Source: Nitrosarchaeum sp. (GTDB lineage: Archaea > Thermoproteota > Nitrososphaeria > Nitrososphaerales > Nitrosopumilaceae). From it: a stretch of DNA of 64,000 nt. The notes beneath the pieces are model-generated. The model searched no databases, was not told the DNA's origin, and saw only the letters and a list, made by a program, of their open reading frames with translations. The stretch spans positions 1,760,001 through 1,824,000 of the forward strand of contig OZ245020.1 in the NCBI GenBank assembly GCA_965223865.1. The letters run 5' to 3'. Numbering within the stretch: position 1 is the first letter of the stretch; each line of letters opens with the position of its first letter. Both the position numbers and the translations under genes were made by a program. This document shows positions 6,265-58,845 of the stretch, piece after piece.

Positions 6265-6718
6265 TCAGAACCCTTTGGGTAAAGTGCCTCTGGATGTTTT
6301 TGGTTTTTTAGGTTCTTGTTGTGGTTCGAATCCTTTTGGAAGAGAACCTCTTGTTGTTTTAGCCTGTTGTTGAGCTTCTTTTGCAATAATTTCAGCTTCG
6401 GCTTTTTCTCTTTCGATTCTTTCCCGCTCAATTCTTTTAAGATATTCTTTTTCATATTCTTCTCGTTGTTCTTTTATTGATTTTTCTCCTTTTTCACTTG
6501 AAGGCGGTGCTTGTTGTGTTTGAGCTTGTGATTTTTCCATTCCTTTTGGTAGTGTACCTTTTGGTTTTGTGGTTGCAGCTGGTCTTTCAGCTGGTTTTGT
6601 CTCAAGCTGGTTTTGTCTCAGCTGGGGCCTCTAATTCTGTAGATAGTTTGTTTAGTTTAGCTTCTAATTCTGCAATCTTGCTTTCAAGATCTTTTTTTGT
6701 TTGCTTTTTAGTTGCCAT
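6265..6718 (-). pseudogene. Short paralogue of the PKGTLPKGF repeat protein with a +1 frameshift at 6604-6605
   Basis: MATKKQTKKDLESKIAELEAKL...PAETKPA* then continues in the next frame as ETKPAERPAATTKPKGTLPKGMEKSQ...RGTLPKGF*. The span is 454 nt (3n+1), and ctcaagctgg replaces the repeat unit ctcagctgg. Confidence 0.8.
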
Positions 6719-6842
6719 TTCTTACACTACACACAGTATTGTTTATTTACATTTTGACTAGATTTAGATGTCAAATGAAAAAATCAAAATAGATCATCCA
6801 AAACACAATCACAAAAATAAGAAATCAATACAAAACCAGATC

Positions 6843-7034
6843 TTAATCAGGTTCCCAAAATTGCATTATATACAGACAATTATTGCATCGCCATGATCGT
6901 ACATGAATGCCATTATCAATATCAGAAACATACTTACCATTTTTTAATTTGCGTACATGTGGAAGATAGGACAGATCAGGATTGTCAAGCCATTCAGTTT
7001 GTCCACAGTTGTGGCATTTGATTTGTGGAGGCAC
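6843..7034 (-). CDS. Small zinc-ribbon protein
   Basis: CHNC...CNNC pair in 63 aa. Confidence 0.7.
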   Translation of the reverse strand: MPPQIKCHNCGQTEWLDNPDLSYLPHVRKLKNGKYVSDIDNGIHVRSWRCNNCLYIMQFWEPD

Positions 7035-45981: not shown

Positions 45982-46635
45982 ATGATAGTTGATCTGAACC
46001 TCCAAGGTAAAAAAGTAATTATCATCGGAGGCGGAAATGAAGCACTAAAGAGAATAAATTCATTGTTAAAACAACAATGCGATGTATTTGTAATTAGCAG
46101 TAAAGTAAATTCTCAGATTATCAAACTAGCCGAATCTAAAATAATAAAATTAAAAAAAATGAATATGGCTAATGTATCTATTCTTTCTAAATACAAACCA
46201 CATGTAGTAATTACTACTACAGATGACAGAAAATTGAATCAGGAAATAATAGAGTATGGGAAAAAAAATAAAATTATTACGTATAGTTCAGATAATCCAG
46301 ATGATAGTGATTTTGCAAATCCTGCAGTAATAGATATTGAAAACATCATACAAATTGCAATTTTTACTGGTGGAAGGAGTCCAGTAATGTCAAAAAAGCT
46401 GAAAATAAAATTTGAAGAGATTTTTAAAAAATCCGTAACAAAGGAGGAAATTGATCAAATTAAAATTCAAAAGATCGTCAGGGAGTTAGCCAAAGACAGA
46501 ATATCCACTCAAAAAAAGAGAAAAGAAGTTCTAAGCAATATTATGGCTGATAATGAGATTGATCAGTTAATAAAAGACGGAAAATTGAAAAAAGCTGAAA
46601 AACGGGCAATTACAATATTGAGAGATTGGGAATGA
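45982..46635 (+). CDS. sirC: Precorrin-2 dehydrogenase / sirohydrochlorin ferrochelatase
   Basis: IIGGGNEA, DNP..SDF..PA and TGGRSP. Confidence 0.88.
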   Translation: MIVDLNLQGKKVIIIGGGNEALKRINSLLKQQCDVFVISSKVNSQIIKLAESKIIKLKKMNMANVSILSKYKPHVVITTTDDRKLNQEIIEYGKKNKIITYSSDNPDDSDFANPAVIDIENIIQIAIFTGGRSPVMSKKLKIKFEEIFKKSVTKEEIDQIKIQKIVRELAKDRISTQKKRKEVLSNIMADNEIDQLIKDGKLKKAEKRAITILRDWE

Positions 46636-47894
46636 AGCAAAACATCATAAATGCAAGGGTAACTTTTCGTGGATCTCCAATTCATGTTTTAGAAAGATTT
46701 ACAATTAGAGATTTAGAGGGAGCATATGAACAATTTAAGAAACACTCAGGATTAGATGAGTGTGTAATTATTCAGACGTGTAACCGAATTGAATTGTTTG
46801 GAAAATCAAAGGAATGTAATGCTGAAAAGATCAAAAAGACATGGGCATCATTGACGGGTTTAGAGGAAGAAGCATTCAAAGATAATTTAGAATTAGTTGA
46901 AAATCAACAAGCATTTCATCATCTTCTAAAACTCACATCAGGATTAGATTCAATGGTACTTGGAGAAGAACAGATTTTAGGCCAAATTAAAAATTCCATC
47001 ACAGAGGCAAGAAGTATCAAAGCATCAGGTCAGCATCTCAATACTCTTTTTGACAAAGCAATTAGAATAGGAACACGAATTAGAAATACCAGCGGTATTG
47101 GGCGAGGAGGAATTTCTGTTGGTTCTATGGCAGTAAAATTAGCAGAAGAAAATATTGATGAGTTAAAATTTAAAAAAATATTACTGATTGGAACAGGAGA
47201 AGTTTCAACTCTTGTTGCAAAATCCCTTCAAAGAAGAGGATATGGTTTTTCAGTAACTAGCAGAACTCTTGAAAGATCGAAGGCATTTTGTGAAACAATG
47301 GGAGGAAAGCCAGTTAAATTTGAAGATGTTTTATCAGGATTTGAAAATTATGATGTACTTTTTGTAGCAACTACTGCACCATACTTTCTTGTAACATATG
47401 AAAGGATTACAAATGCCATGAAGGAAAAGAAAACAGGTATGATGATTTTGGATTTGTCAAACCCTAGAACAGTAGATGAAAAAGTAGCAACTATTGGAGG
47501 TATTAAATTAATGAATCTTGATCAAATTGCTGAAATGGTTGAAAAGAATATGAATGCACGATTAAACAAGGTAAAAACCGTTGAAAATATAATTAATGAA
47601 GAAGTATCAGTTCTAGAAGCCTCAATGAAAAGACTAGATGCCGAACCACTCGTTAAAGATGTTTTCAAAAACATAGACTCTCTTAGAATAAAAGAATTAC
47701 AAAAAGCACTGCATATGCTTGATGAAAAAGATGAGAAAAAAATCAAGATAATTGAAGAGTTAACAAAGGCAGTAGTAGAAAGTATAGTATCTACTCCCAT
47801 GAACAATATTAGAAAGGCATCTGAGCAAGGAGATCCTTATGTTATTGAAATGGCAAGCAAATTATTTGACTATAAAAAGAGTCAATTAGACTAG
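46632..47894 (+). CDS. hemA: Glutamyl-tRNA reductase
   Basis: QTCNRIE, GLDSMVLGE.QILGQ and DLSNPR. Confidence 0.95.
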   Translation: MKQNIINARVTFRGSPIHVLERFTIRDLEGAYEQFKKHSGLDECVIIQTCNRIELFGKSKECNAEKIKKTWASLTGLEEEAFKDNLELVENQQAFHHLLKLTSGLDSMVLGEEQILGQIKNSITEARSIKASGQHLNTLFDKAIRIGTRIRNTSGIGRGGISVGSMAVKLAEENIDELKFKKILLIGTGEVSTLVAKSLQRRGYGFSVTSRTLERSKAFCETMGGKPVKFEDVLSGFENYDVLFVATTAPYFLVTYERITNAMKEKKTGMMILDLSNPRTVDEKVATIGGIKLMNLDQIAEMVEKNMNARLNKVKTVENIINEEVSVLEASMKRLDAEPLVKDVFKNIDSLRIKELQKALHMLDEKDEKKIKIIEELTKAVVESIVSTPMNNIRKASEQGDPYVIEMASKLFDYKKSQLD

Positions 47895-47919
47895 GATTAT
47901 ATTTTACCCTAAAGGATTT

Positions 47920-48906
47920 TTGAGTATGTCTTTTCCTATGAGACGACTTCGTAGATTAAGAACTTCTTCAAAAATGAGGGAGTTGGTACAAGAGACTAGT
48001 TTATCACCAAGAGATTTCATTTGCCCAGTTTTTGTTCAAGAAGATCTAAAGACAAGAATTAAAGTAGAATCAATGTCAGAGATAGAACGATTGCCTCTTG
48101 AAGACATTAATGATGAGGTAGGAACAATTTCAGATTTAGGCATACCTGCAATTATGTTATTTGGAATTCCAAGTAACAAAGATGAAGCTGGTTCATCAGC
48201 ATTTGATGATAATGGAATTGTTCAAAAGGCAATTTCCCAGATTAGAAAAAACTTTGGAGATAAAATGGTGATTATGGCAGATGTATGTCTGTGTCAATTT
48301 ACATCAACAGGACACTGTGGAATTATTCAAGGAAATAAAATCGATAACGATACTAGTTTGGACACTTTAGCAAAAATAGCCGTAAGTCAGGCAAAAGCAG
48401 GTGTTGATACTGTCTCACCATCTGCAATGATGGATGGTCAAGTAGCTGCGATTAGAGAAGCTCTAGACGGTGAAGGGTTTACTGATGTATCTATAATGTC
48501 ACATTCAGCAAAACATCGTTCTGGGTTTTACTCACCTTTTAGAGATGCTGCGGAATGTGCACCAAAATTCGGAGACAGAAAAACATACCAAGTTCCTTTC
48601 ACAAATGCAAGAGAAGCCATGTTGGAAGTTCAAACTGATATCAATGAGGGGGTAGATATTGTAATGATTAAACCAGCTTTATCATATCTAGATCTTATTT
48701 CAGAAACTAGAAAGAGATTCGACGTTCCAGTTGCAGCATACAGTGTTTCAGGAGAATATGCATTAGTTAAAGGAGCAGCAAAACAAGGTTGGATTGATGA
48801 AAAGAACATCACAGAAGAAATACTATATTCCATTAAAAGAGCAGGTGCAGACATGATTGTGACATACTTTGCAAAATCAGCAGCAACATTTCTTCAAAAA
48901 TCATGA
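47920..48906 (+). CDS. hemB: Porphobilinogen synthase
   Basis: RRLRRLR, DVCLC....GHCG, MMDG and MIKP. Confidence 0.96.
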   Translation: MSMSFPMRRLRRLRTSSKMRELVQETSLSPRDFICPVFVQEDLKTRIKVESMSEIERLPLEDINDEVGTISDLGIPAIMLFGIPSNKDEAGSSAFDDNGIVQKAISQIRKNFGDKMVIMADVCLCQFTSTGHCGIIQGNKIDNDTSLDTLAKIAVSQAKAGVDTVSPSAMMDGQVAAIREALDGEGFTDVSIMSHSAKHRSGFYSPFRDAAECAPKFGDRKTYQVPFTNAREAMLEVQTDINEGVDIVMIKPALSYLDLISETRKRFDVPVAAYSVSGEYALVKGAAKQGWIDEKNITEEILYSIKRAGADMIVTYFAKSAATFLQKS

Positions 48907-49257: not shown

Positions 49258-50166
49258 CTATTGCTCCAAGTTTAATGGAATAGATGCACTTCCATACGGT
49301 TCAGAGATTCTAAAGACATAATCTTTTGAAGAATCATAGATGAATTGTGTTCCACCATATCCAATATTTGGACCAAACAACATGTTGAATATTGCAGACT
49401 CTCCAGATTTCAGAACAATTTGCCCATTTGTAAAATCCATGCCAGAATACTTGAATGCCTTTTCACCATTCCAAACATCATAGTTACATACAGCAGGACC
49501 AGTACACATCATGGAAATATTATCTGATGAGCCATTATTTTCAGCTAGCATTCTAATTGAAAGAATTGCCTGACCAGATGGAGAAATTTCAAATGAATTT
49601 CCTTCACTTCCAAGATCGGCCCAATAATAAGTCAATGGTCCTACTTGGAAAGACTGACCATTTGTTTTTATTTTGTAAGCTTCAATTTGATGCTCAGCTG
49701 CTTTTTCACAGTTTAGTCTAGGATATGCTTTAGTAATCTCAGAACATTTTTCAAGCTCTGTTTCAAGGGAAGCTAATTTTGAATCATTAGTTGCTGATTG
49801 CATTGGAGCTTCAACTACAGGTTCAGAAGTTGAAACAGAGACAATACCAGTTTTTATCAGATGTTGAATTCCGTTAACAAATTCACCATCAGAAATTGTT
49901 CCATCAGCCCACCATCCTGCATTGTTTTTTACCCAAGCTGGTACACCTTCAGACGATTCAGCAGATACTGTTGTTGGAGGAACTACAATAATACCATCTT
50001 CTATAAGGAATTGAATCCCTTGTACAAATTCTGATTCAGAAATTGTTCCATCAGCCCACCATCCTGCATTGTTTTTTACCCAAGCTGGTACTTCTTCAGC
50101 ACTTGCAAAAGAAGTAATTGATCCTACTAAGAGAATTGCTGCAATTGTGGTTATTGTGGTTTTCAT
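49258..50166 (-). CDS. Exported protein with two N-terminal VPAWVKNNAGWW repeats and a C-terminal beta-rich domain
   Basis: Signal peptide; the two repeats are identical at DNA level over about 55 bp (about 49889-49944 and 50036-50091). Confidence 0.8.
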   Translation of the reverse strand: MKTTITTIAAILLVGSITSFASAEEVPAWVKNNAGWWADGTISESEFVQGIQFLIEDGIIVVPPTTVSAESSEGVPAWVKNNAGWWADGTISDGEFVNGIQHLIKTGIVSVSTSEPVVEAPMQSATNDSKLASLETELEKCSEITKAYPRLNCEKAAEHQIEAYKIKTNGQSFQVGPLTYYWADLGSEGNSFEISPSGQAILSIRMLAENNGSSDNISMMCTGPAVCNYDVWNGEKAFKYSGMDFTNGQIVLKSGESAIFNMLFGPNIGYGGTQFIYDSSKDYVFRISEPYGSASIPLNLEQ

Positions 50167-50214
50167 TAACGTGTTTTTCCATTCATAATATTTAAGCTGG
50201 TGCCAATAATTTGT

Positions 50215-50259
50215 CTAGTGCTAAATTTTAAAAGAAATTGTAAAAATATCTAGTGGTAA
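50215..50259. promoter_or_regulatory. Two regulon boxes serving divergent promoters (ctagtgctaa 50215-50224; ctagtggtaa 50250-50259)
   Basis: Each lies 20-21 nt from a TATA-like element (50189-50195 on minus; 50281-50287 on plus). Confidence 0.7.
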
Positions 50260-50310
50260 ACAAAATTTTCCATATTGGGCTTTTTATGTAATCAACATCA
50301 AATTTGAAAA

Positions 50311-50868
50311 GTGAAGGAAAAGCAAGAATATTCCAATGTAGGATTGCCTGTTATTTCTGAGGATGATGTTAAAAATTATGTATTTGAGAGATTTGAAGAC
50401 GTTAAAAGGTTAAAAAAAATCAAAAATCTCGTGAATTTTCAGGCTATGAATAAGTACATGATAATGGCCCATAACCAAGAGCAACTCAAAAAGCTAGGAA
50501 ACATTGTAGCTAGTTATAAAAAAATCCCCTTTTCAGAAATTTTAGAGAGTTATGAAGAAAATCTAAGAATTGCTCTAAAGAAAAAACCAACCAAGAAAAT
50601 GCATACAAATGTAATTATGCATATTTTTGGACATTTTTCAAAAAAATTGAATCAATCTGATAAAGAATTGTTTTTTCAGTTATTAGAAGAATATAGAAAA
50701 GAAAAGATCAGCTTAGGAGATATTCTTGTAGAAATAAATCCAGTCATATTTAGATTCAACAATACCTATCTAGCTAGTCAGACCTACTTTTTATTATATT
50801 CAAACATTATTCCAGGAATTCCATTTCAATCTCTCAATAATGAAAACGTCATAAAGGATCTAAATTAA
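50311..50868 (+). CDS. DUF1722 (YbgA-like) protein
   Basis: FQA.NKY.IMAH....K.LG, H.NV.MH.FG.F.K.L and YLASQTYF. Confidence 0.85.
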   Translation: MKEKQEYSNVGLPVISEDDVKNYVFERFEDVKRLKKIKNLVNFQAMNKYMIMAHNQEQLKKLGNIVASYKKIPFSEILESYEENLRIALKKKPTKKMHTNVIMHIFGHFSKKLNQSDKELFFQLLEEYRKEKISLGDILVEINPVIFRFNNTYLASQTYFLLYSNIIPGIPFQSLNNENVIKDLN

Positions 50869-50893
50869 AAAAAATAGCAAAAAATAAAATCCA

Positions 50894-50929
50894 TTAGCAC
50901 TATAAAATATAGTTAGCATTAGTTATATA
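50894..50929 (+). promoter_or_regulatory. Regulon box, second half-site and TATA upstream of the B12-binding regulator
   Basis: TTAGCACTA (50894-50902), TTAGCATTA (50913-50921) and TTATATA (50923-50929). Confidence 0.7.
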
Positions 50930-50950
50930 GTTTAATGAAACAAAAAATTC

Positions 50951-51793
50951 ATGGTATACATTAGAGCAAAGAAAGTAAAATCTGATCAATATCTTTATCT
51001 TGTCAAAAGTGTGTGGGATTCTCAGAAAAATACATCAAAACAAGAAATAATCAAGTATTTAGGAAAAGCATCTGATGTTGTAAAAGATGATATTCCTTCA
51101 GATTACAGAAATGATTCTAAAATATTATCTGTGTTGGCAAAATTTAATCCTAAAGATATTAAAAAAAGAGAAGATGCATCAAAAAAATCAAAACAGCAAC
51201 TATTTAAAAAATTAACAGAAGGAGATATTCAGGCTTCACTAAAGATCTATCAGGAATATACCAAAATTTTTGATACTCCAGATTTTTTTGATAAAATTCT
51301 AAAACCAGTAATGTATAAGATTGGAGACGATTGGGCTACTGGTAAAATCAGTATTGCAACAGAGCATGTAGCAAGTAATGTTGCACAAACCCTTGTTAAA
51401 ATTATAATGGATCAAGTTACTGGAAATGCCAACAAAAAGAAAGTCTTAATTTGTGTTCCTCTTGGAGAGGAACATCATCTTGGTTGTGACGTACTAGAAA
51501 CATATCTTTCAATTAAAGGATTCAAAGTATACAACATGGGAACATCAATGCCCACGGAATCTATTTTGAATTTCATCGATAACAACAATCCTGATGTAGT
51601 ACTATTATCAATAACCTTGGAGGATAATCTATCAGCAGGACAACGACTTGTAAGAAAGATCAAAGAACGATTTAACATTCCAATTTTGGTTGGCGGTTTT
51701 GCAATAGAGGGAGAAAATATCCCAAAGTTTGATGCAAAAATAATACCAAAATCATCACTAGAAGAAATCCCCAAGTTGATTAGAACAGCATAG
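50951..51793 (+). CDS. Cobalamin-binding (CarH/LitR-like) putative regulator with non-MerR N-terminal domain
   Basis: W-x9-EH (WATGKISIATEH), GEEHHLG, G..V.N.G...P and VGG Rossmann motifs; basic beta-rich N-terminus. Confidence 0.85.
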   Translation: MVYIRAKKVKSDQYLYLVKSVWDSQKNTSKQEIIKYLGKASDVVKDDIPSDYRNDSKILSVLAKFNPKDIKKREDASKKSKQQLFKKLTEGDIQASLKIYQEYTKIFDTPDFFDKILKPVMYKIGDDWATGKISIATEHVASNVAQTLVKIIMDQVTGNANKKKVLICVPLGEEHHLGCDVLETYLSIKGFKVYNMGTSMPTESILNFIDNNNPDVVLLSITLEDNLSAGQRLVRKIKERFNIPILVGGFAIEGENIPKFDAKIIPKSSLEEIPKLIRTA

Positions 51794-51801
51794 TTTATTT
51801 C

Positions 51802-53136
51802 TTATTTTTTTAAATAAGATTGTATTTTAGGCATGCAAAGAATAGAGCTATGGGCTGCTGAATCAGTACCTATTCCGTAACTAATAGTAGAATCCCCTAC
51901 AAAAAACAACCCCTTAATGCTAGGAATTTCATGTGGCATTTTTGATTTCCATACCAATCCAGGTTCTTTTACAACTGATTCCACAAGATTCCAAGCCATT
52001 GGGCGTTCCCAAAGTAGTGATTCCTCAAATTGAGGGTAAATCGAAGAGATTTCTTTTTTCATTGTATTTACGATCATACGTATTTGTTTTGGATCATCAG
52101 TGACAGAGGGATCTACTGGAGTTCCAGCAATTATCAAATGTTCTCCCGGAGGAGAAACTGATGAAGTAATGTTTGAAATGAAAAAAATTCCTTTTGTAGT
52201 ATAATTATCACCGACTGGAAAAACTACTTGTCTTGTATCAAGTTGAGATTTTAAGGCAAAATGAACCTCTACTACTGCAGTTTTTTTGTTTAACTTGTTT
52301 ATCTCTTTTACAAATTTTTCATCAAATACATCTCTGTCAAACAATTGATTAATTGCCATGTAAGCAGGGTAAGAAATCACAACACAGTTTGTCGGAATAA
52401 AATCATTACTGTTTGTTACTATTCCTGTTACTTTAGAATTTTCAATAATAATTTTTTTTACAGAGCAGTTTAGCTCAACATTACCATCATTTTCTTCAAT
52501 GTATTGGGCCAAAATTTTTGAAATTGAATCATATCCACCGTCTTCAGGATAAGCAAATTCACTTGTTCCTCCTTTGAAAGGATTGGCACGGATTATTGTC
52601 CTTGCAAATTCACCTAAAGAAATATGATCAACAGTATCAGCAAAAGCCAACATGCATACTGCCTCAAAAAATGCATTTGTTTCAGGATCTAATTTGGAAG
52701 TTATTTCTTTTAGAGAAAGGTTATCCCATTCTTCTGTTTTTTCAATGGAGGTAAAAGCCATCGGGAGAAGTACTTTCAAAAGTTTGATTCTACTTTTTAA
52801 TGGAATCAGAGAAAGGCGTAAAAGGTCATTCATTCCTTTAGGATATTTGTGAAATCCTGAATCAGAATGAAAGGCAATATTGTCAACTTTGGCAAGTTTT
52901 AGTTTTGATTCAATTTCTAATGATTTTAAAACAGTGAAAATTGCAGATTTTTTGTAAAAGGGCATAATATGAAAGCCATTATCTAGAATATGGTTTTTAA
53001 ATTTCATAGAGGCAGTTCTGCCACCTAATTTTGAGGATTTTTCAATAATTCTTACAGGATGTCCTTTTTGTGCAAGCATAGCACCTGTGGTTAGTCCACC
53101 CACTCCTGCTCCAATAATGTAAATGGGTTCCCTCAT
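51802..53136 (-). CDS. FAD-dependent oxidoreductase, phytoene desaturase/amine oxidase superfamily
   Basis: IIGAGVGGL, EK...LGGR, LDNGFH, YP.GG and GLFFVGD. Confidence 0.85.
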   Translation of the reverse strand: MREPIYIIGAGVGGLTTGAMLAQKGHPVRIIEKSSKLGGRTASMKFKNHILDNGFHIMPFYKKSAIFTVLKSLEIESKLKLAKVDNIAFHSDSGFHKYPKGMNDLLRLSLIPLKSRIKLLKVLLPMAFTSIEKTEEWDNLSLKEITSKLDPETNAFFEAVCMLAFADTVDHISLGEFARTIIRANPFKGGTSEFAYPEDGGYDSISKILAQYIEENDGNVELNCSVKKIIIENSKVTGIVTNSNDFIPTNCVVISYPAYMAINQLFDRDVFDEKFVKEINKLNKKTAVVEVHFALKSQLDTRQVVFPVGDNYTTKGIFFISNITSSVSPPGEHLIIAGTPVDPSVTDDPKQIRMIVNTMKKEISSIYPQFEESLLWERPMAWNLVESVVKEPGLVWKSKMPHEIPSIKGLFFVGDSTISYGIGTDSAAHSSILCMPKIQSYLKK

Positions 53137-53157
53137 GAATAATTTTTTATTTTTTTC

Positions 53158-53194
53158 TATTTATGCAGGTGCCAAATAATTTACATAGTGCTAA
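53158..53194 (-). promoter_or_regulatory. Regulon box, half-site and TATA upstream of the flavoprotein gene
   Basis: Minus strand TTAGCACTA-N10-TTGGCAC-CTGC-ATAAATA. Confidence 0.7.
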
Positions 53195-53644
53195 CTATTT
53201 GGACAAATTATAAGAATTAAATTTCTCAGTAGATTTAATAAACTGATCCATTACTGAACTCATCTGATTTGCAAGATAATCTTCTAAGAATCCAAATAAC
53301 TTGAAAAATCCATTTAATCTTAATCTTACATCAATTGAAATAACTGTTCCATCATCAGATTTTACATATGACTCTACAAATACAGTCCCCTTAGTAGGCC
53401 CACTAAGAATATAGATTTCGTGATTTGAGGGTTTTTTAATTACATGTTTTGTTTTTATTTTTAGGGGAATTCCAAGAAATTTTATTTTTTCTAAAACAAT
53501 TTTTTCATTCTTTGTTTGTCTAATGATTTTTAATGATTTAAAATAATCAGGCATTACCTGATGAAAATTTTCGACATCAGTACTTAAATGAAATATTCTT
53601 TCTTGAGATAATGAAGAATTTCTCGTTAGAGTAAAATGTTTCAT
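53195..53644 (-). CDS. SRPBCC / polyketide cyclase-like (START fold) protein
   Basis: IF.L.TDVENF.QVMP.YF.S..I N-terminus and a C-terminal amphipathic helix. Confidence 0.8.
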   Translation of the reverse strand: MKHFTLTRNSSLSQERIFHLSTDVENFHQVMPDYFKSLKIIRQTKNEKIVLEKIKFLGIPLKIKTKHVIKKPSNHEIYILSGPTKGTVFVESYVKSDDGTVISIDVRLRLNGFFKLFGFLEDYLANQMSSVMDQFIKSTEKFNSYNLSK

Positions 53645-53647
53645 ATC

Positions 53648-53824
53648 TTAATCACTATTTTCAGATAATGAGAAATTTGTTTGTATATTTTCAAGGTTAT
53701 TGTAATTACTTTTTTTGATTTTCAAGCGAACTAAGGATGAAAGACAAACGTTCAGTTTTTTTGGATTTTCATCAGAATTCAAATTTTTTGTAGATTGGGA
53801 CAGGAAAGACAATTCAGTAATCAT
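53648..53824 (-). CDS. Small ORF (58 aa) leading the SRPBCC gene
   Basis: MITELSFLSQSTKNLNSDENPKKLNVCLSSLVRLKIKKSNYNNLENIQTNFSLSENSD*; follows a boxed promoter and stops 3 nt before the next ATG. Confidence 0.45.
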   Translation of the reverse strand: MITELSFLSQSTKNLNSDENPKKLNVCLSSLVRLKIKKSNYNNLENIQTNFSLSENSD

Positions 53825-53866
53825 ACTTTTTTGTTTTTAGTATTTATGAAGAAAAGAAATTATTTC

Positions 53867-53919
53867 ATAGTGCCAATAATTTGTTATTGTATTAATATTT
53901 AGGAGCGAATTAGCACTAG
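53867..53919. promoter_or_regulatory. Two regulon boxes serving divergent promoters (atagtgccaa 53867-53876; ttagcactag 53910-53919)
   Basis: 19-20 nt from TATA-like elements at 53841-53847 (minus) and about 53938-53945 (plus). Confidence 0.7.
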
Positions 53920-53967
53920 ATTATAATTTTTAGGACATTAAAATATCTTAAAAAAGAAAAACAAGCT

Positions 53968-54123
53968 ATGGAAGAAAATCTTTCAATTTCATATGGAGTT
54001 GAATCAGGTTATGCGATGATTGAGAATAAAGAGTTTGGTTTGATTGAAAACATCTCAAAGGTGTTATCTAAAGTAAGAGAACTTGAGAGCCAAACAGCAA
54101 TAGTAATTCAAGTCTCAGGATAA
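53968..54123 (+). CDS. Small ORF (51 aa)
   Basis: MEENLSISYGVESGYAMIENKEFGLIENISKVLSKVRELESQTAIVIQVSG*; ATG about 22 nt after the TATA-like element. Confidence 0.55.
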   Translation: MEENLSISYGVESGYAMIENKEFGLIENISKVLSKVRELESQTAIVIQVSG

Positions 54124-54132
54124 AAAACTAAA

Positions 54133-54363
54133 ATGAGTAAATTAAAACCATATAGACCAAGCATCATAACAGCATTTGGAGTAATCTTTTTGATTTCAGC
54201 AATAATTATTCCAATTCAAAATTTGATTGTGTGGGGTCCAGATTTTGTGATGGAGTTTTACACATCGTCTCAAATAACTTCAGAGAAAATATCAATTGGA
54301 GTGATTGCATTTGGTCTTGCATTAATTTTGATAGGTTATAAAAAGCAAGTCTATGTTGAATAG
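54133..54363 (+). CDS. Small two-helix membrane protein
   Basis: Two hydrophobic segments in 76 aa. Confidence 0.7.
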   Translation: MSKLKPYRPSIITAFGVIFLISAIIIPIQNLIVWGPDFVMEFYTSSQITSEKISIGVIAFGLALILIGYKKQVYVE

Positions 54364-54374
54364 AAGTTTAATAA

Positions 54375-54410
54375 TTACCACTAGTTACAAAAACAAATCT
54401 GGCTTAAATA
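54375..54410 (+). promoter_or_regulatory. Regulon box and TATA upstream of the uORF-tfb unit
   Basis: TTACCACTA (54375-54383), N20, then TTAAATA (54404-54410). Confidence 0.65.
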
Positions 54411-54431
54411 ATTTTAAAACCAAATTTAATT

Positions 54432-54596
54432 ATGATAGTAAAATCATCTTACCAAGAAAAAAACAGAAATTCATTAGTATATGTAAATTCTAAAATCAAA
54501 ATTTGTATTAATTATAGTAATTACAAAATAAAATTTCATGAGTTTGGAGTATCCTGTAAATATTATGGAGAACCATTTTGGAGGATAAAATGTTAA
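54432..54596 (+). CDS. Small ORF (54 aa) whose stop overlaps the tfb start
   Basis: MIVKSSYQEKNRNSLVYVNSKIKICINYSNYKIKFHEFGVSCKYYGEPFWRIKC*; ATG 21 nt after TATA, ATGTTAA overlap with tfb. Confidence 0.4.
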   Translation: MIVKSSYQEKNRNSLVYVNSKIKICINYSNYKIKFHEFGVSCKYYGEPFWRIKC

Positions 54597-55495
54597 CCGA
54601 ACTTGTGCATCAACAAAATTGCAACAAAAATAAAATAATTACAGATTTAGATACTGGGGAAATTGCATGTAGTAATTGTGGTGCAGTATCACATGAAAAA
54701 CCAATTGAATTTGGACCAGAAATTTCTGGAATTACAAAAGAAGAATATCTTAAAACATCTCGAGTTGGAAGGAAAATTTCATTAAAAATAGCCGATATGG
54801 GCTTATCGACAATAATAGAGTCACAAGATAAGGATGCTACTGGAAAGTACTTATCAAAAGAGAATCGTAGAATGTTTTATCGCCTTCGTATGTGGGATAG
54901 AAATAGTCGTTCTGCAAATACTGTAAAATCATTGCAAAAAGCATTTCTTTTACTTGATGGAATTAGAGCAAAACTTAATCTTCCTGAACCAGTTGTAGAA
55001 CATACAGCCTATCTTTTTAGAAAAATTTCAGCAAAAAAAATTCTTAGCGGCAGAACTACTTCAGGAATTCTTTGTGCTACAGTGTACATTGCATGTAGAT
55101 TAACAAACACACCTAGAACCATACAAGATGTTGCCGATGCTGGAAATATCAAAAGAAAAAACTTACAGAGAATTTACAGATTTTTAATAAAAGAGCTAAA
55201 CATCTTTCCTAATGCATATAATCCACATGAATTTATTACAAGAATTTCAAAAACTATTAGCATTTCAGAAAAAACAGAAAGACTTGCATTTAACATTGTT
55301 TTGTTGACAGAAAAAATAGGAATATCTACAAGCAAGAATCCAATGGCAATGGCAGCAGCATCTATTCATTTGGCATCCTTGAAAAATAATGAAAAAGTTT
55401 CACAATTAAAAATTTCAGAGGCATCAGGTATAAGTGCTGTAACAATTAGGGATCGAGCAAAAGAGATCAAAGAAAGATTAGGAGGTGAAATTTAG
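54590..55495 (+). CDS. tfb: Alternative TFB paralogue
   Basis: ITD..TGEIACSNCG, DMGLST.I...KD..G, RLR.W, two cyclin folds and ISAVTIRDR; GGAGG precedes the ATG at 54590. Confidence 0.9.
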   Translation: MLTELVHQQNCNKNKIITDLDTGEIACSNCGAVSHEKPIEFGPEISGITKEEYLKTSRVGRKISLKIADMGLSTIIESQDKDATGKYLSKENRRMFYRLRMWDRNSRSANTVKSLQKAFLLLDGIRAKLNLPEPVVEHTAYLFRKISAKKILSGRTTSGILCATVYIACRLTNTPRTIQDVADAGNIKRKNLQRIYRFLIKELNIFPNAYNPHEFITRISKTISISEKTERLAFNIVLLTEKIGISTSKNPMAMAAASIHLASLKNNEKVSQLKISEASGISAVTIRDRAKEIKERLGGEI

Positions 55496-55677
55496 TGGGA
55501 AGAACATGTAGAGGTATTTGCCAAATGCACAAAGCCGAACCTGTTCCAAATAAACTCAGATATGAAGTTGGTCAGAAGCGATGTACGTTTTGTGGAATAT
55601 TTATGTCAGTTGAAGATACTAGATGTATTTGTTGCAAGGCAGTCCTAAGAACAAAGGCAAGAGGGAAAAAGAATTAG
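55495..55677 (+). CDS. Small Cys-rich zinc-finger protein
   Basis: CRGIC, CTFC and CICC; GGAGG upstream, coupled to tfb. Confidence 0.8.
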   Translation: MGRTCRGICQMHKAEPVPNKLRYEVGQKRCTFCGIFMSVEDTRCICCKAVLRTKARGKKN

Positions 55678-57894: not shown

Positions 57895-58845
57895 TTATTT
57901 TCGAGTTTTTTTCTTTGTAGCTACTTTCTTTGCTGGTTTCTTTGTAGCTACTTTCTTTGCTGGTTTCTTTGTAGCTACTTTCTTTGCTGGTTTCTTTGTA
58001 GCTACTTTCTTTGCTGGTTTCTTTGTAGCTACTTTCTTTGCTGGTTTCTTTGTAGCTACTTTCTTTGCTGGTTTCTTTGTAGCTACTTTCTTTGCTGGTT
58101 TCTTTGTAGCTACTTTCTTTGCTGGTTTCTTTGTAGCTACTTTCTTTGCTGGTTTCTTTGTAGCTACTTTCTTTGCTGGTTTCTTTGTAGCTACTTTCTT
58201 TGCTGGTTTCCTCTTAAGATAATCTTGAAGCCGTTTTGTGGCTCTTTCGAGAGCCTTTTTAGCAGATTCCTCTGCTCTTGACCTTCTTTCAAGTTCTACT
58301 GCAAGTTTTTGGACCTCTTTATGACTTGAGGCCATTTTTTCTCTCAAAGCAGGTTTTGAATGAGTCTGTTTTTGGATTTTGGAAGTAATTGTCGATTTTA
58401 TATTACTGAATTTGGCAATATCATCAGAAATCTTTTTAGCAGTTTTTGTTCTATTTTTTATCTCAAGTTCTAGTTCTTGAACATGATCTTTGAGGGATCT
58501 TAATCTCGATTCGGCATACCCTTTTTCTTCAGGATTATCAGCAAATTCAATTTCTTGTTCGGCTTGAGCGATTGCATCTTTTTCAAGGGTTAATCGTTCC
58601 TTAGCAGTAGAGATTAATCTTTCAATGCTTTCTATTTGAGCATTTTTTTGAACAAGAGTTTCAGAAACATCTGATGCATCTTCTTTTTGAGATTCAATTT
58701 TTTTCTCTATGGTGTTTAATCCTGAGGATGATCTTCTTTCAAGAGATTTGTATTCTTTTAATTGCTTTTCAGCTTTATTTTTTAATCTAGTAGCTTCTCG
58801 TTTCTTTTTTCTTAGATCATTAACTAATTTTTCTAGAGTTACCAA
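57895..58845 (-). CDS. Long coiled-coil protein with histone-H1-like KKPAKKVAT tail
   Basis: About 210 aa of heptad pattern followed by 11 copies of KKPAKKVAT. Confidence 0.85.
57910..58210. repeat. Perfect 27-bp tandem repeat, 11 copies
   Basis: Unit tttctttgtagctactttctttgctgg with no visible substitutions. Confidence 0.95.

Follow-up and report, generated by a model that had tools for sequence, protein, structure and literature searches.

The closest described counterparts of the system reported here include the B12 photoreceptors CarH and LitR (class I LitR) of Thermus, Myxococcus and Bacillus, in which a sensor module pairing a four-helix bundle with a Rossmann B12-binding domain is joined to a MerR winged-helix, and in which a direct-repeat operator overlaps the promoter, also in front of the regulator's own gene. 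In this work we describe a candidate archaeal relative of these systems in a 64,000-nucleotide stretch of the genome of Nitrosarchaeum sp. (assembly GCA_965223865.1, contig OZ245020.1, positions 1,760,001 to 1,824,000; hereafter the window, in whose numbering coordinates are given). It consists of a 280-aa protein, here termed B12reg or the regulator (50951-51793, plus strand), and a bipartite direct repeat, the box, that recurs at six promoters of the surrounding gene block (49258-55677). Judged from sequence, this regulator-box system is most likely a variant of the CarH kind that is conserved across ammonia-oxidising archaea (AOA). We further consider it reasonably probable that B12reg serves both as an adenosylcobalamin (AdoCbl) photoreceptor and as a transcription factor, combining the sensor of CarH with a different DNA-binding head and acting as a dark-state repressor that is released by light.

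In the accessible portions of the literature, to which the citations here and below refer, CarH homologues are defined by the motifs Wx9EH and ExHx2Gx41SxV/Tx22-27GG; Wx9EH, which caps the adenosyl group, is presented as the hallmark separating light-sensing CarH from MetH-type binding, and MetH is listed there without it (PMC8156234). A second source gives the signature GxxW, EH, GxxH and GxxxP for light-responsive cobalamin-binding domains (PMC11796333, SignatureFinder). The photocobilins (SasPcob, 8j2w/8j2x) and other non-MerR B12 photoreceptors (SignatureFinder set) show this sensor module at work with output domains of other kinds; the photocobilins have a C-terminal biliverdin-binding region and control enzymes, whereas B12reg has a putative DNA-binding head at its N-terminus and no bilin domain. 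In the LitR-LitS pair of Streptomyces the photoreceptor controls an alternative sigma factor (PMC11519972), and DUF1722/RudS genes are reported within LitR-photolyase operons of Pseudomonas (PMC11417400). The archaeal system shares with CarH/LitR the two-part sensor with both of its motifs, a putative direct-repeat operator overlapping the promoter (binding to which is predicted here), a box before the regulator's own gene, and a regulon with photolyase, DUF1722 and a CrtI-like gene. It differs in having a three-stranded beta-sheet head instead of the MerR winged-helix, an archaeal promoter with a TATA box and transcription factor B (TFB) recognition element (BRE) instead of a sigma-A promoter, and two 10-bp units 19 bp apart instead of three or four tandem 11-bp repeats; moreover, no carotenoid pathway is evident, and the regulator is restricted to three AOA families in our sample. 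The accessible literature yielded no account of a B12 photoreceptor regulator from archaea (subscription journals and supplements fell outside this scope, and the SignatureFinder network may contain these proteins), and the literature searched describes no light sensor or light regulon of AOA.

The sensor module and the head of the regulator

Residues ~78-156 of B12reg form a four-helix bundle with G125xxW128x9E138H139, and residues ~160-280 a Rossmann B12-binding domain with E173xH175xxG178 x41 S220xT222 x25 G248G249; the protein matches the Pfam families B12-binding_2 and B12-binding. Across 30 orthologues (47-97% identity) the residues W128, E138, H139, E173, H175, S220, T222, G248 and G249 are invariant in 29-30. 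The pattern G..W.{9}EH is found in all 30, and Wx9EH together with ExHx2Gx41SxTx25GG in 29, the window protein included, while W.{9}EH recurs in each of ten regulators from two other families. The window protein also contains all four SignatureFinder elements, namely GxxW (G125-W128), EH (E138H139), GxxH (G172-H175) and GxxxP (G197-P201), which it has in common with the photocobilins. The latter come first in a profile search of the PDB (2.8e-21), followed by a MerR B12 domain and then by CarH/LitR at ~1e-13, level with MetH. When the AlphaFold2 (AF2) model of the regulator (predicted local distance difference test score, pLDDT, 87.6) was compared with known structures by Foldseek, all 25 matches listed were B12 photoreceptors (CarH, LitR, photocobilin and CtMerR), the best with E = 2e-12 (8c36, 5c8a), a probability of 1.00 and ~200 aligned columns. 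By this comparison the fold of the B12 module is like that of TtCarH, the low TM-scores (0.37/0.51) being due to a different relative pose of the domains. A two-copy full-length complex prediction scored 0.02 against a mark of 0.42 and speaks neither for nor against oligomerisation.

A preliminary description of this stretch, made from its letters alone, had proposed that the cobalamin-binding protein is a regulator like CarH/LitR. The photoreceptor-specific motifs bear out the sensor half of this proposal, but neither MerR nor any other Pfam family is matched by residues 1-80, so that the protein is not a CarH/LitR in the strict sense. Genes for a methylmalonyl-CoA mutase that depends on AdoCbl and for a PduO-type adenosyltransferase are present in the window genome, and the cell therefore both makes and uses the AdoCbl chromophore. 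B12reg is thus predicted, by homology of its sensor, to bind AdoCbl and to be sensitive to light. In public records these proteins go under names such as 'cobalamin-dependent protein', 'response regulator receiver', 'histidine kinase', 'MtbC1' and 'methionine synthase'.

The head, comprising residues 1-40, is modelled by AF2 as three beta strands (2-9, 12-23 and 28-39; pLDDT ~90) and is the most conserved region of the protein, with a mean column identity of 79% against 66% for the whole. Its profile matches 424 cluster representatives. These include a DDE_Tnp_1 protein of 526 aa, an HNH protein of 176 aa and an AbiEii protein of 362 aa, each with the module at residue 1; in P0216, P0242 and P0256 it precedes an HNH endonuclease, an AbiEii nucleotidyltransferase or a DDE transposase, and it also stands at the front of many proteins of 170-190 aa with unknown C-termini. 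The module that in IS1634-like DDE transposases and mobile-element proteins is joined to transposase and nuclease domains is here joined to a sensor. Such a domain context suggests that the head is a portable nucleic-acid-binding module; if true, a role in DNA binding could be ascribed to a small beta-sheet domain that is likewise found at the front of transposases and nucleases.

The box and its place at the promoter

Two directly repeated units make up the box, TTAGCACTAG-N9-TTAnCAC(TAG), which adjoins the TATA box. On the coding strand, TTAGCACTAG and a gap of ~9 nt precede TTRGCAY or TTAnCAC, which runs into TAG or CAGC; the TATA box comes next, with the ATG ~20 nt further on. The first 10-mer, TTAGCACTAG, ends ~19 nt before TATA, in agreement with the 19-21 nt given in the preliminary description, to which the present analysis adds the second, looser copy that abuts TATA. 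Circularity was avoided by building a 46-nt position weight matrix solely on other genomes (86 sites, 19 loci); its scan of the window yielded six sites of 20.5-34.5 bits, all within 50182-54417 and none elsewhere in the 64 kb. In the whole window genome it found 16 sites above 18 bits, the maxima in three Markov-2 random genomes being 13.5-14.1. The strict pattern GTGCYAA-N10-12-GTGCTAA has two matches in the window and none in 100 shuffles. A relaxed scan (one mismatch per half-site plus an AT-rich tail) was uninformative, with 32 genome matches against 21-33 in random sequence, and the matrix was used instead. The possibility that the box is a repeat or mobile element was rejected, given its fixed distance to TATA and start codon and its conservation while the flanks diverge.

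The six boxed promoters of the block are those of exp302 (50182..50227, repeats at 50200-50224, minus strand; 34.5 bits, strict pattern match), of the regulator itself (50891..50936, plus; 29.7 bits), of the CrtI-like gene (53152..53197, repeats at 53169-53194, minus; 30.5 bits, strict pattern match), of the SRPBCC gene with the small open reading frame (ORF) s58 before it (53834..53879, minus; 22.1 bits), of the s51-tm76 unit (53907..53952, plus; 20.5 bits) and of a unit made up of a small ORF (sORF), a TFB paralogue and Znf60 (54372..54417, plus; 24.8 bits). The regulator's own promoter reads TTAGCACTAT-N9-TTAGCATTAG-TTATATAG, with the ATG 14 nt past the matrix window. The spacing to TATA box and start codon is fixed, the ATG following the matrix window by 14-15 nt at six promoters, and the TATA boxes are near-consensus (TTTAAATA/TTTATATA). 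The earlier claim that every promoter in the block carries the same upstream box therefore stands for these six, but not throughout: DUF1722 has none in its own orientation, and the box of the TFB gene lies 160-170 nt upstream of its start, before the sORF. The exp302 box is situated in the intergenic stretch shared with the divergent DUF1722 gene, where an extra upstream copy, TTACCACTAG (50250..50259, minus strand; only 12.2 bits), is found 21 nt upstream of the DUF1722 TATA box but inverted with respect to that gene and in the same orientation as the exp302 box.

This layout bears on the sign of regulation. Archaeal activators usually sit upstream of BRE/TATA, and this is where the distal, best-conserved repeat is positioned; the fixed orientation and TATA distance are likewise what would be expected of a recruiting factor. 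The same sensor and box could hence serve an activator that recruits TATA-binding protein (TBP) and TFB from the upstream repeats, with either the light or the dark form being active. We regard this as improbable, in that the second repeat reaches TATA and would clash with TFB on the BRE, near-consensus TATA boxes are typical of promoters needing no help, and the CarH precedent is one of repression (PMC8156234). The near-consensus TATA boxes fit repression, and a direct-repeat arrangement suits the head-to-tail manner in which CarH is known to assemble (PMC8156234). We thus favor repression in the dark as the predicted sign.

Distribution of the regulator and its box

Taking a full-length orthologue (E < 1e-50) as the mark of a regulator-positive genome, we found B12reg in 52 of 121 genomes of the family, the remaining genomes matching only MetH. 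A gapped box pattern has 135 matches across the 121 genomes as against 14 for the reversed control. It is present in 41/52 regulator-positive and 10/69 regulator-negative genomes (the latter set, for this tally only, includes the unpublished genomes G077 and G092), figures that describe the pattern rather than test it, since related genomes are not independent and the two-by-two table overstates the association. The exceptions with a box but no intact regulator include a pseudogene in G038, a tandem-repeat artefact in G019, and G073. The G038 fragment (G038:C1:1499973-1502839) has an in-frame TAG, shows 54% identity over residues 21-135 and is adjoined by two boxes; it is probably a recently decayed copy.

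Of 30 loci, 23 show the box immediately upstream of the regulator. The remaining seven have a unit in the order exp302-Znf60-regulator, with the box in front of its first gene. Among 20 loci of ~20 kb each, the regulator is the first gene after a box in 16 and lies in an operon behind a boxed gene in the other four, which upholds, at the sequence level, the autoregulation proposed earlier. Other genes that come first after the box are exp302 (14/18 loci), NmrA-like (11/12), PNPOx (4/4), p121 (4/4), TFB (5/9) and CrtI-like (4/7); these being the loci on which the matrix was trained, the first-gene counts show gene association and not significance. In two loci (L041 and L045) the regulator is the only gene of the query set with a box. 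A survey of the class places the regulator in three families, all belonging to one order (62/114, 4/5 and 8/14 genomes), and in none of the 67 genomes of the other eleven families. Ten loci come from two of these families outside that of the window genome (regulators 30-46% identical, GC content 28-51%). Seven of them have the box immediately upstream of the regulator and two have it upstream of a same-strand NmrA-like gene; in one, only a degenerate copy is seen by eye. The conservation of box and cluster in relatives, which the preliminary description had put forward as a check, thus holds across genera and families.

Several observations weigh against our reading of B12reg as the light-responsive repressor that binds this box. 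On the sensor side, the strictly spaced B12 motif is found in only two of the ten regulators from the two other families, and GxxxP is retained in just 12 of the 30 orthologues. On the side of the head, Foldseek retrieved nothing from the PDB at E <= 0.001; with VIA-align the best match was ribosomal protein PSRP-3 (Z 5.1), and the integrase arm-binding, PC4 and Pur-alpha folds reached only Z 2.5-2.8. Regulator and box also part company, in that 11 of the 52 regulator-positive genomes are without the strict box pattern and the ten regulator-negative genomes counted above have it. In G073, a genome of the same genus (99% complete, 120 contigs; C89:83902-85465 and C69:8705-10039), two good boxes flank an island-type TFB and a photolyase is present, but the regulator was not found with the window query; G009 (72% complete) likewise has the TFB and photolyase, and the regulator was not found in it. 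To these may be added the DUF1722 gene with no box in its own orientation, the photolyase operon of the window genome (B12bd2_91-Usp-PHR), in which the matrix scan detected no canonical box of its own, and the fact that most regulon members are of no known function, so that 'photoprotection' rests on a few. Finally, Znf60 travels with the regulator (15/20 loci) and could itself be the DNA binder or a co-factor.

This last point leads to an explanation in which the box is bound by Znf60, or by the TFB paralogue as an extended BRE, and the B12 protein is a light-controlled partner or anti-factor, comparable to AerR acting on CrtJ. Besides its presence in those 15 loci, Znf60, a 60-aa Cys-rich protein from Nitrososphaerota-only clusters without Pfam families (Atlas), is encoded directly upstream of the regulator in 7/30 loci, in the order exp302-Znf60-B12reg; the proximal repeat is at the BRE position, the head has no assigned DNA-binding fold, and G073 retains boxes and TFB where the regulator was not found. 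We nevertheless deem this explanation unlikely. An island-type TFB was found in no more than 14 of the 52 regulator-positive genomes, and the upstream position of the distal repeat puts it out of reach of a TFB. Znf60 has no match in any of the ten loci from the two other families, which keep box and regulator, and in L041 and L045 the lone regulator gene is boxed with no Znf60 within 9 kb. Furthermore, the head, the best-conserved region of B12reg, is homologous to the N-termini of a transposase and an HNH nuclease. We therefore infer that the regulator itself, and not the product of a neighboring gene, binds the box.

The gene islands and the proposed circuit

The genes of the block listed in the preliminary description agree with the ORF calls and Pfam matches. 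The most constant boxed partner of the regulator is exp302 (49258-50166, minus strand; present in 18/20 loci), a 302-aa protein with a signal-peptide-like N-terminus by eye, two ~35-aa repeats and a C-terminal domain. It has no Pfam match, its cluster (2244 members) is Nitrososphaerota-only and without Pfam families (Atlas), and on its sequence features it is probably secreted. Divergent from it is a stand-alone DUF1722 (YbgA-like) gene (50311-50868, plus; 122.9 bits), whose product is matched nearly full-length by PF08349 (profile positions 1-116 of 117) and by no TudS/DUF523 or other family; found in 13/20 loci, it comes first behind a box in just one. Beyond the regulator lies a flavin adenine dinucleotide-dependent (FAD) amine-oxidase or CrtI-like flavoprotein (51802-53136, minus; 444 aa), which matches only the general families Amino_oxidase (103.5 bits) and NAD_binding_8, making its CrtI subfamily label putative; no carotenoid synthase gene was noticed in the ORF and gene listings of this block and of the second island described below. 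The 149-aa SRPBCC-like protein (53195-53644, minus; orthologues in 4/20 loci) has a Polyketide_cyc score of 20.6 bits, below the 23.4 cut-off. Between its gene and the box at 53834..53879 is s58 (53648-53824, minus; 58 aa), a doubtful ORF for which tblastn gave no match in any of the 20 loci. The remaining small ORFs are s51 (53968-54123, plus; found in 1/20 loci) and tm76 (54133-54363, plus; 4/20).

Next in the block are the 54-aa sORF (54432-54596, plus), which overlaps the start of the TFB gene, the TFB paralogue itself, of the island type (54590-55495, plus; two TFIIB matches, 101.2 bits), and Znf60 (55495-55677, plus; no Pfam match). The ATG at 54590 is conserved among TFB orthologues, the TTG at 54578 being also open. 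The N-terminal zinc ribbon of this TFB has a Zn_Ribbon_TF score of 28.0 bits, slightly below the cut-off of 29, and a first knuckle that by eye reads H..NC and not CxxC. The sORF orthologues in L032, L033, L037, L039 and L040 are CxxC...CxxC zinc ribbons overlapping the TFB start; the window copy, with CINY and CKYY, has lost two of the four cysteines that serve as zinc ligands. These five loci also share the boxed sORF-TFB arrangement, with scores of 22-38. The window genome has 11 intact TFB paralogues and one island pseudogene; none of the remaining intact paralogues exceeds 45% identity to the window TFB, and the pseudogene is 58-64% identical to it. This second island-type TFB (L001 13247-14121, minus, equal to G000:C1:1440247-1441121, G000 being the window genome) is frameshifted, its halves lying in different frames and the second containing TGA and TAG; both copies are intact in G067 and G102. 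Island-type TFBs (E <= 1e-85) occur in 16 of the 121 genomes, 14 of them regulator-positive, and as they are thereby found in only 14/52 regulator-bearing genomes, the TFB is an accessory, lineage-specific member of the regulon and not part of its core. An arrangement of putative light sensor over alternative initiation factor gene recalls the LitR-LitS and CarQ-type cascades, and the boxed TFB recurs in five other loci. It differs from these in that a TFB is the archaeal counterpart of a sigma factor and not a sigma factor itself, and in its restriction to that minority of genomes. Of the earlier proposal that the signal is relayed genome-wide through an alternative TFB, the placement of the TFB gene behind a box is therefore upheld, while the genome-wide relay is unproven.

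The neighbors of the block are ordinary, with hemA (glutamyl-tRNA reductase), hemB (ALAD) and a 103-aa protein upstream and an HD-domain protein and a 211-aa membrane protein downstream; none of these (hemA, hemB, p103, the HD protein and the membrane protein) has a box in the 4-5 loci available for each. Further downstream (57895-58845, minus strand) is a 316-aa coiled-coil-like protein, which ends in about a dozen tandem copies of KKPAKKVAT and has only a sub-threshold Pfam match (MscS_porin).

Elsewhere in the window genome, six further matrix sites are concentrated in an 11-kb island (G000:C1:1430812-1441758; locus L001) that carries genes for a class-I-type photolyase, for two proteins each of the Usp and PNPOx-like kinds, for an NmrA/SDR-like membrane protein, for a stand-alone helical bundle of 91 aa (B12-binding_2) and for several unknown proteins, together with the frameshifted TFB copy. 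The remaining four sites of the genome are scattered, one preceding the gene for a 132-aa protein and one lying upstream of that for a 200-aa protein. The suggestion that a genome scan for the box would bring up further members such as photolyase is thus borne out for the island, though not for the photolyase operon proper, which is without a canonical box. In L044 photolyase is encoded behind the regulator inside the same boxed unit, in L040 behind the boxed p121, and in several genomes (L037, L039, L040, L049) a single island corresponds to both islands of the window genome merged. Photolyase is present in 13 of the 121 genomes, 11 of which are regulator-positive, and was already known from epipelagic AOA (PMC4839502). 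The photolyase matches G027:C1:282489-283850 and G102:C53:13270-14616 have one in-frame TAA each, and may represent broken genes or alignment run-through. The 91-aa bundle (L001 5956-6231, minus, equal to G000:C1:1432956-1433231; B12-binding_2, 22.3 bits) is the first gene of the Usp-photolyase unit and is 51% identical to residues 78-157 of the regulator; by eye the EH of Wx9EH is kept and L replaces W. A similar gene is found in G102 beside a second regulator paralogue, and the bundle could act as a decoy for the dimer interface of the regulator. A lone TTAGCACTAG at L001 6952-6961 (minus), just beyond the stop of the Usp gene at 6450-6884 (plus) and antisense into it, has no good second repeat or TATA box at the usual distance and scores below 12 bits.

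The gene content is also the ground on which to weigh the possibility that the protein senses cobalamin supply, or a redox or ligand state, and not light, tuning a stress or B12-economy regulon by the level of AdoCbl. The module is B12-binding by all sequence criteria; hemA and hemB, the tetrapyrrole and B12 precursor genes (46626-48906, plus), adjoin the block directly upstream, as they do in 5/20 loci; and photolyase was not found in 41 of the 52 regulator-positive genomes. Against this, Wx9EH, the hallmark of light-sensing CarH (PMC8156234), is found in 30/30 orthologues and 10/10 regulators of the other families, hemA/hemB are boxed in 0/5 loci, and no gene for B12 synthesis or transport was seen behind a box in the loci and genome sites examined. 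Photolyase, DUF1722 and Usp in turn point to light, and we hold a sensor of B12 status to be a poor prospect.

Under the preferred reading of B12reg as a light-released repressor, the AdoCbl-loaded protein would oligomerise in the dark via its B12 module, so that the N-terminal beta-sheet heads could occupy both direct repeats of TTAGCACTAG-N9-TTAnCAC(TAG). As the promoter-proximal repeat abuts TATA, its occupancy would cover the TFB contact at the BRE and no pre-initiation complex would form. Ultraviolet (UV), blue or green light would then cleave the Co-C bond and dissolve the oligomer, opening ~16 promoters of the window genome. These would include the promoters of the regulator itself, of exp302 (with DUF1722 divergent from it), of the CrtI-like and SRPBCC genes, of the small proteins and of the TFB paralogue with Znf60, together with those of the second island, with its photolyase, Usp and PNPOx-like genes. 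The core of the interpretation offered in the preliminary description, namely a regulator of B12 photoreceptor type with autoregulation, a shared operator and a photoprotection island, is supported by the sequence evidence, and the interpretation as a whole is partly supported.

Light inhibition of ammonia-oxidising archaea shapes where nitrification takes place in the ocean and in lakes. The system described here supplies a testable candidate for light sensing in AOA, with a single protein, an operator of 29 bp and a definite set of genes that includes photolyase, and a candidate inducing signal for one of the many thaumarchaeal TFB paralogues. If the proposed function is true, B12reg would be the first archaeal example of a transcription factor that is a B12-based photoreceptor and would reveal the way in which such a sensor links up with a TBP/TFB promoter; the compact sensor-operator pair might also offer a green-light switch for archaeal and eukaryote-like promoters in optogenetics. 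More speculatively, AOA as a group may possess an ancient dedicated light circuit, in which a B12 photoreceptor headed by a hitherto unrecognised beta-sheet DNA-binding domain gates archaeal promoters at BRE/TATA and, in some lineages, the TFB paralogue and its zinc-ribbon partners reprogramme a second tier of promoters. We put this forward tentatively, as a scenario with the odds rather against it; if true, it would represent an archaeal equivalent of the photoreceptor-to-sigma-factor cascade and would provide a handle on the photoinhibition and depth niches of marine nitrifiers.

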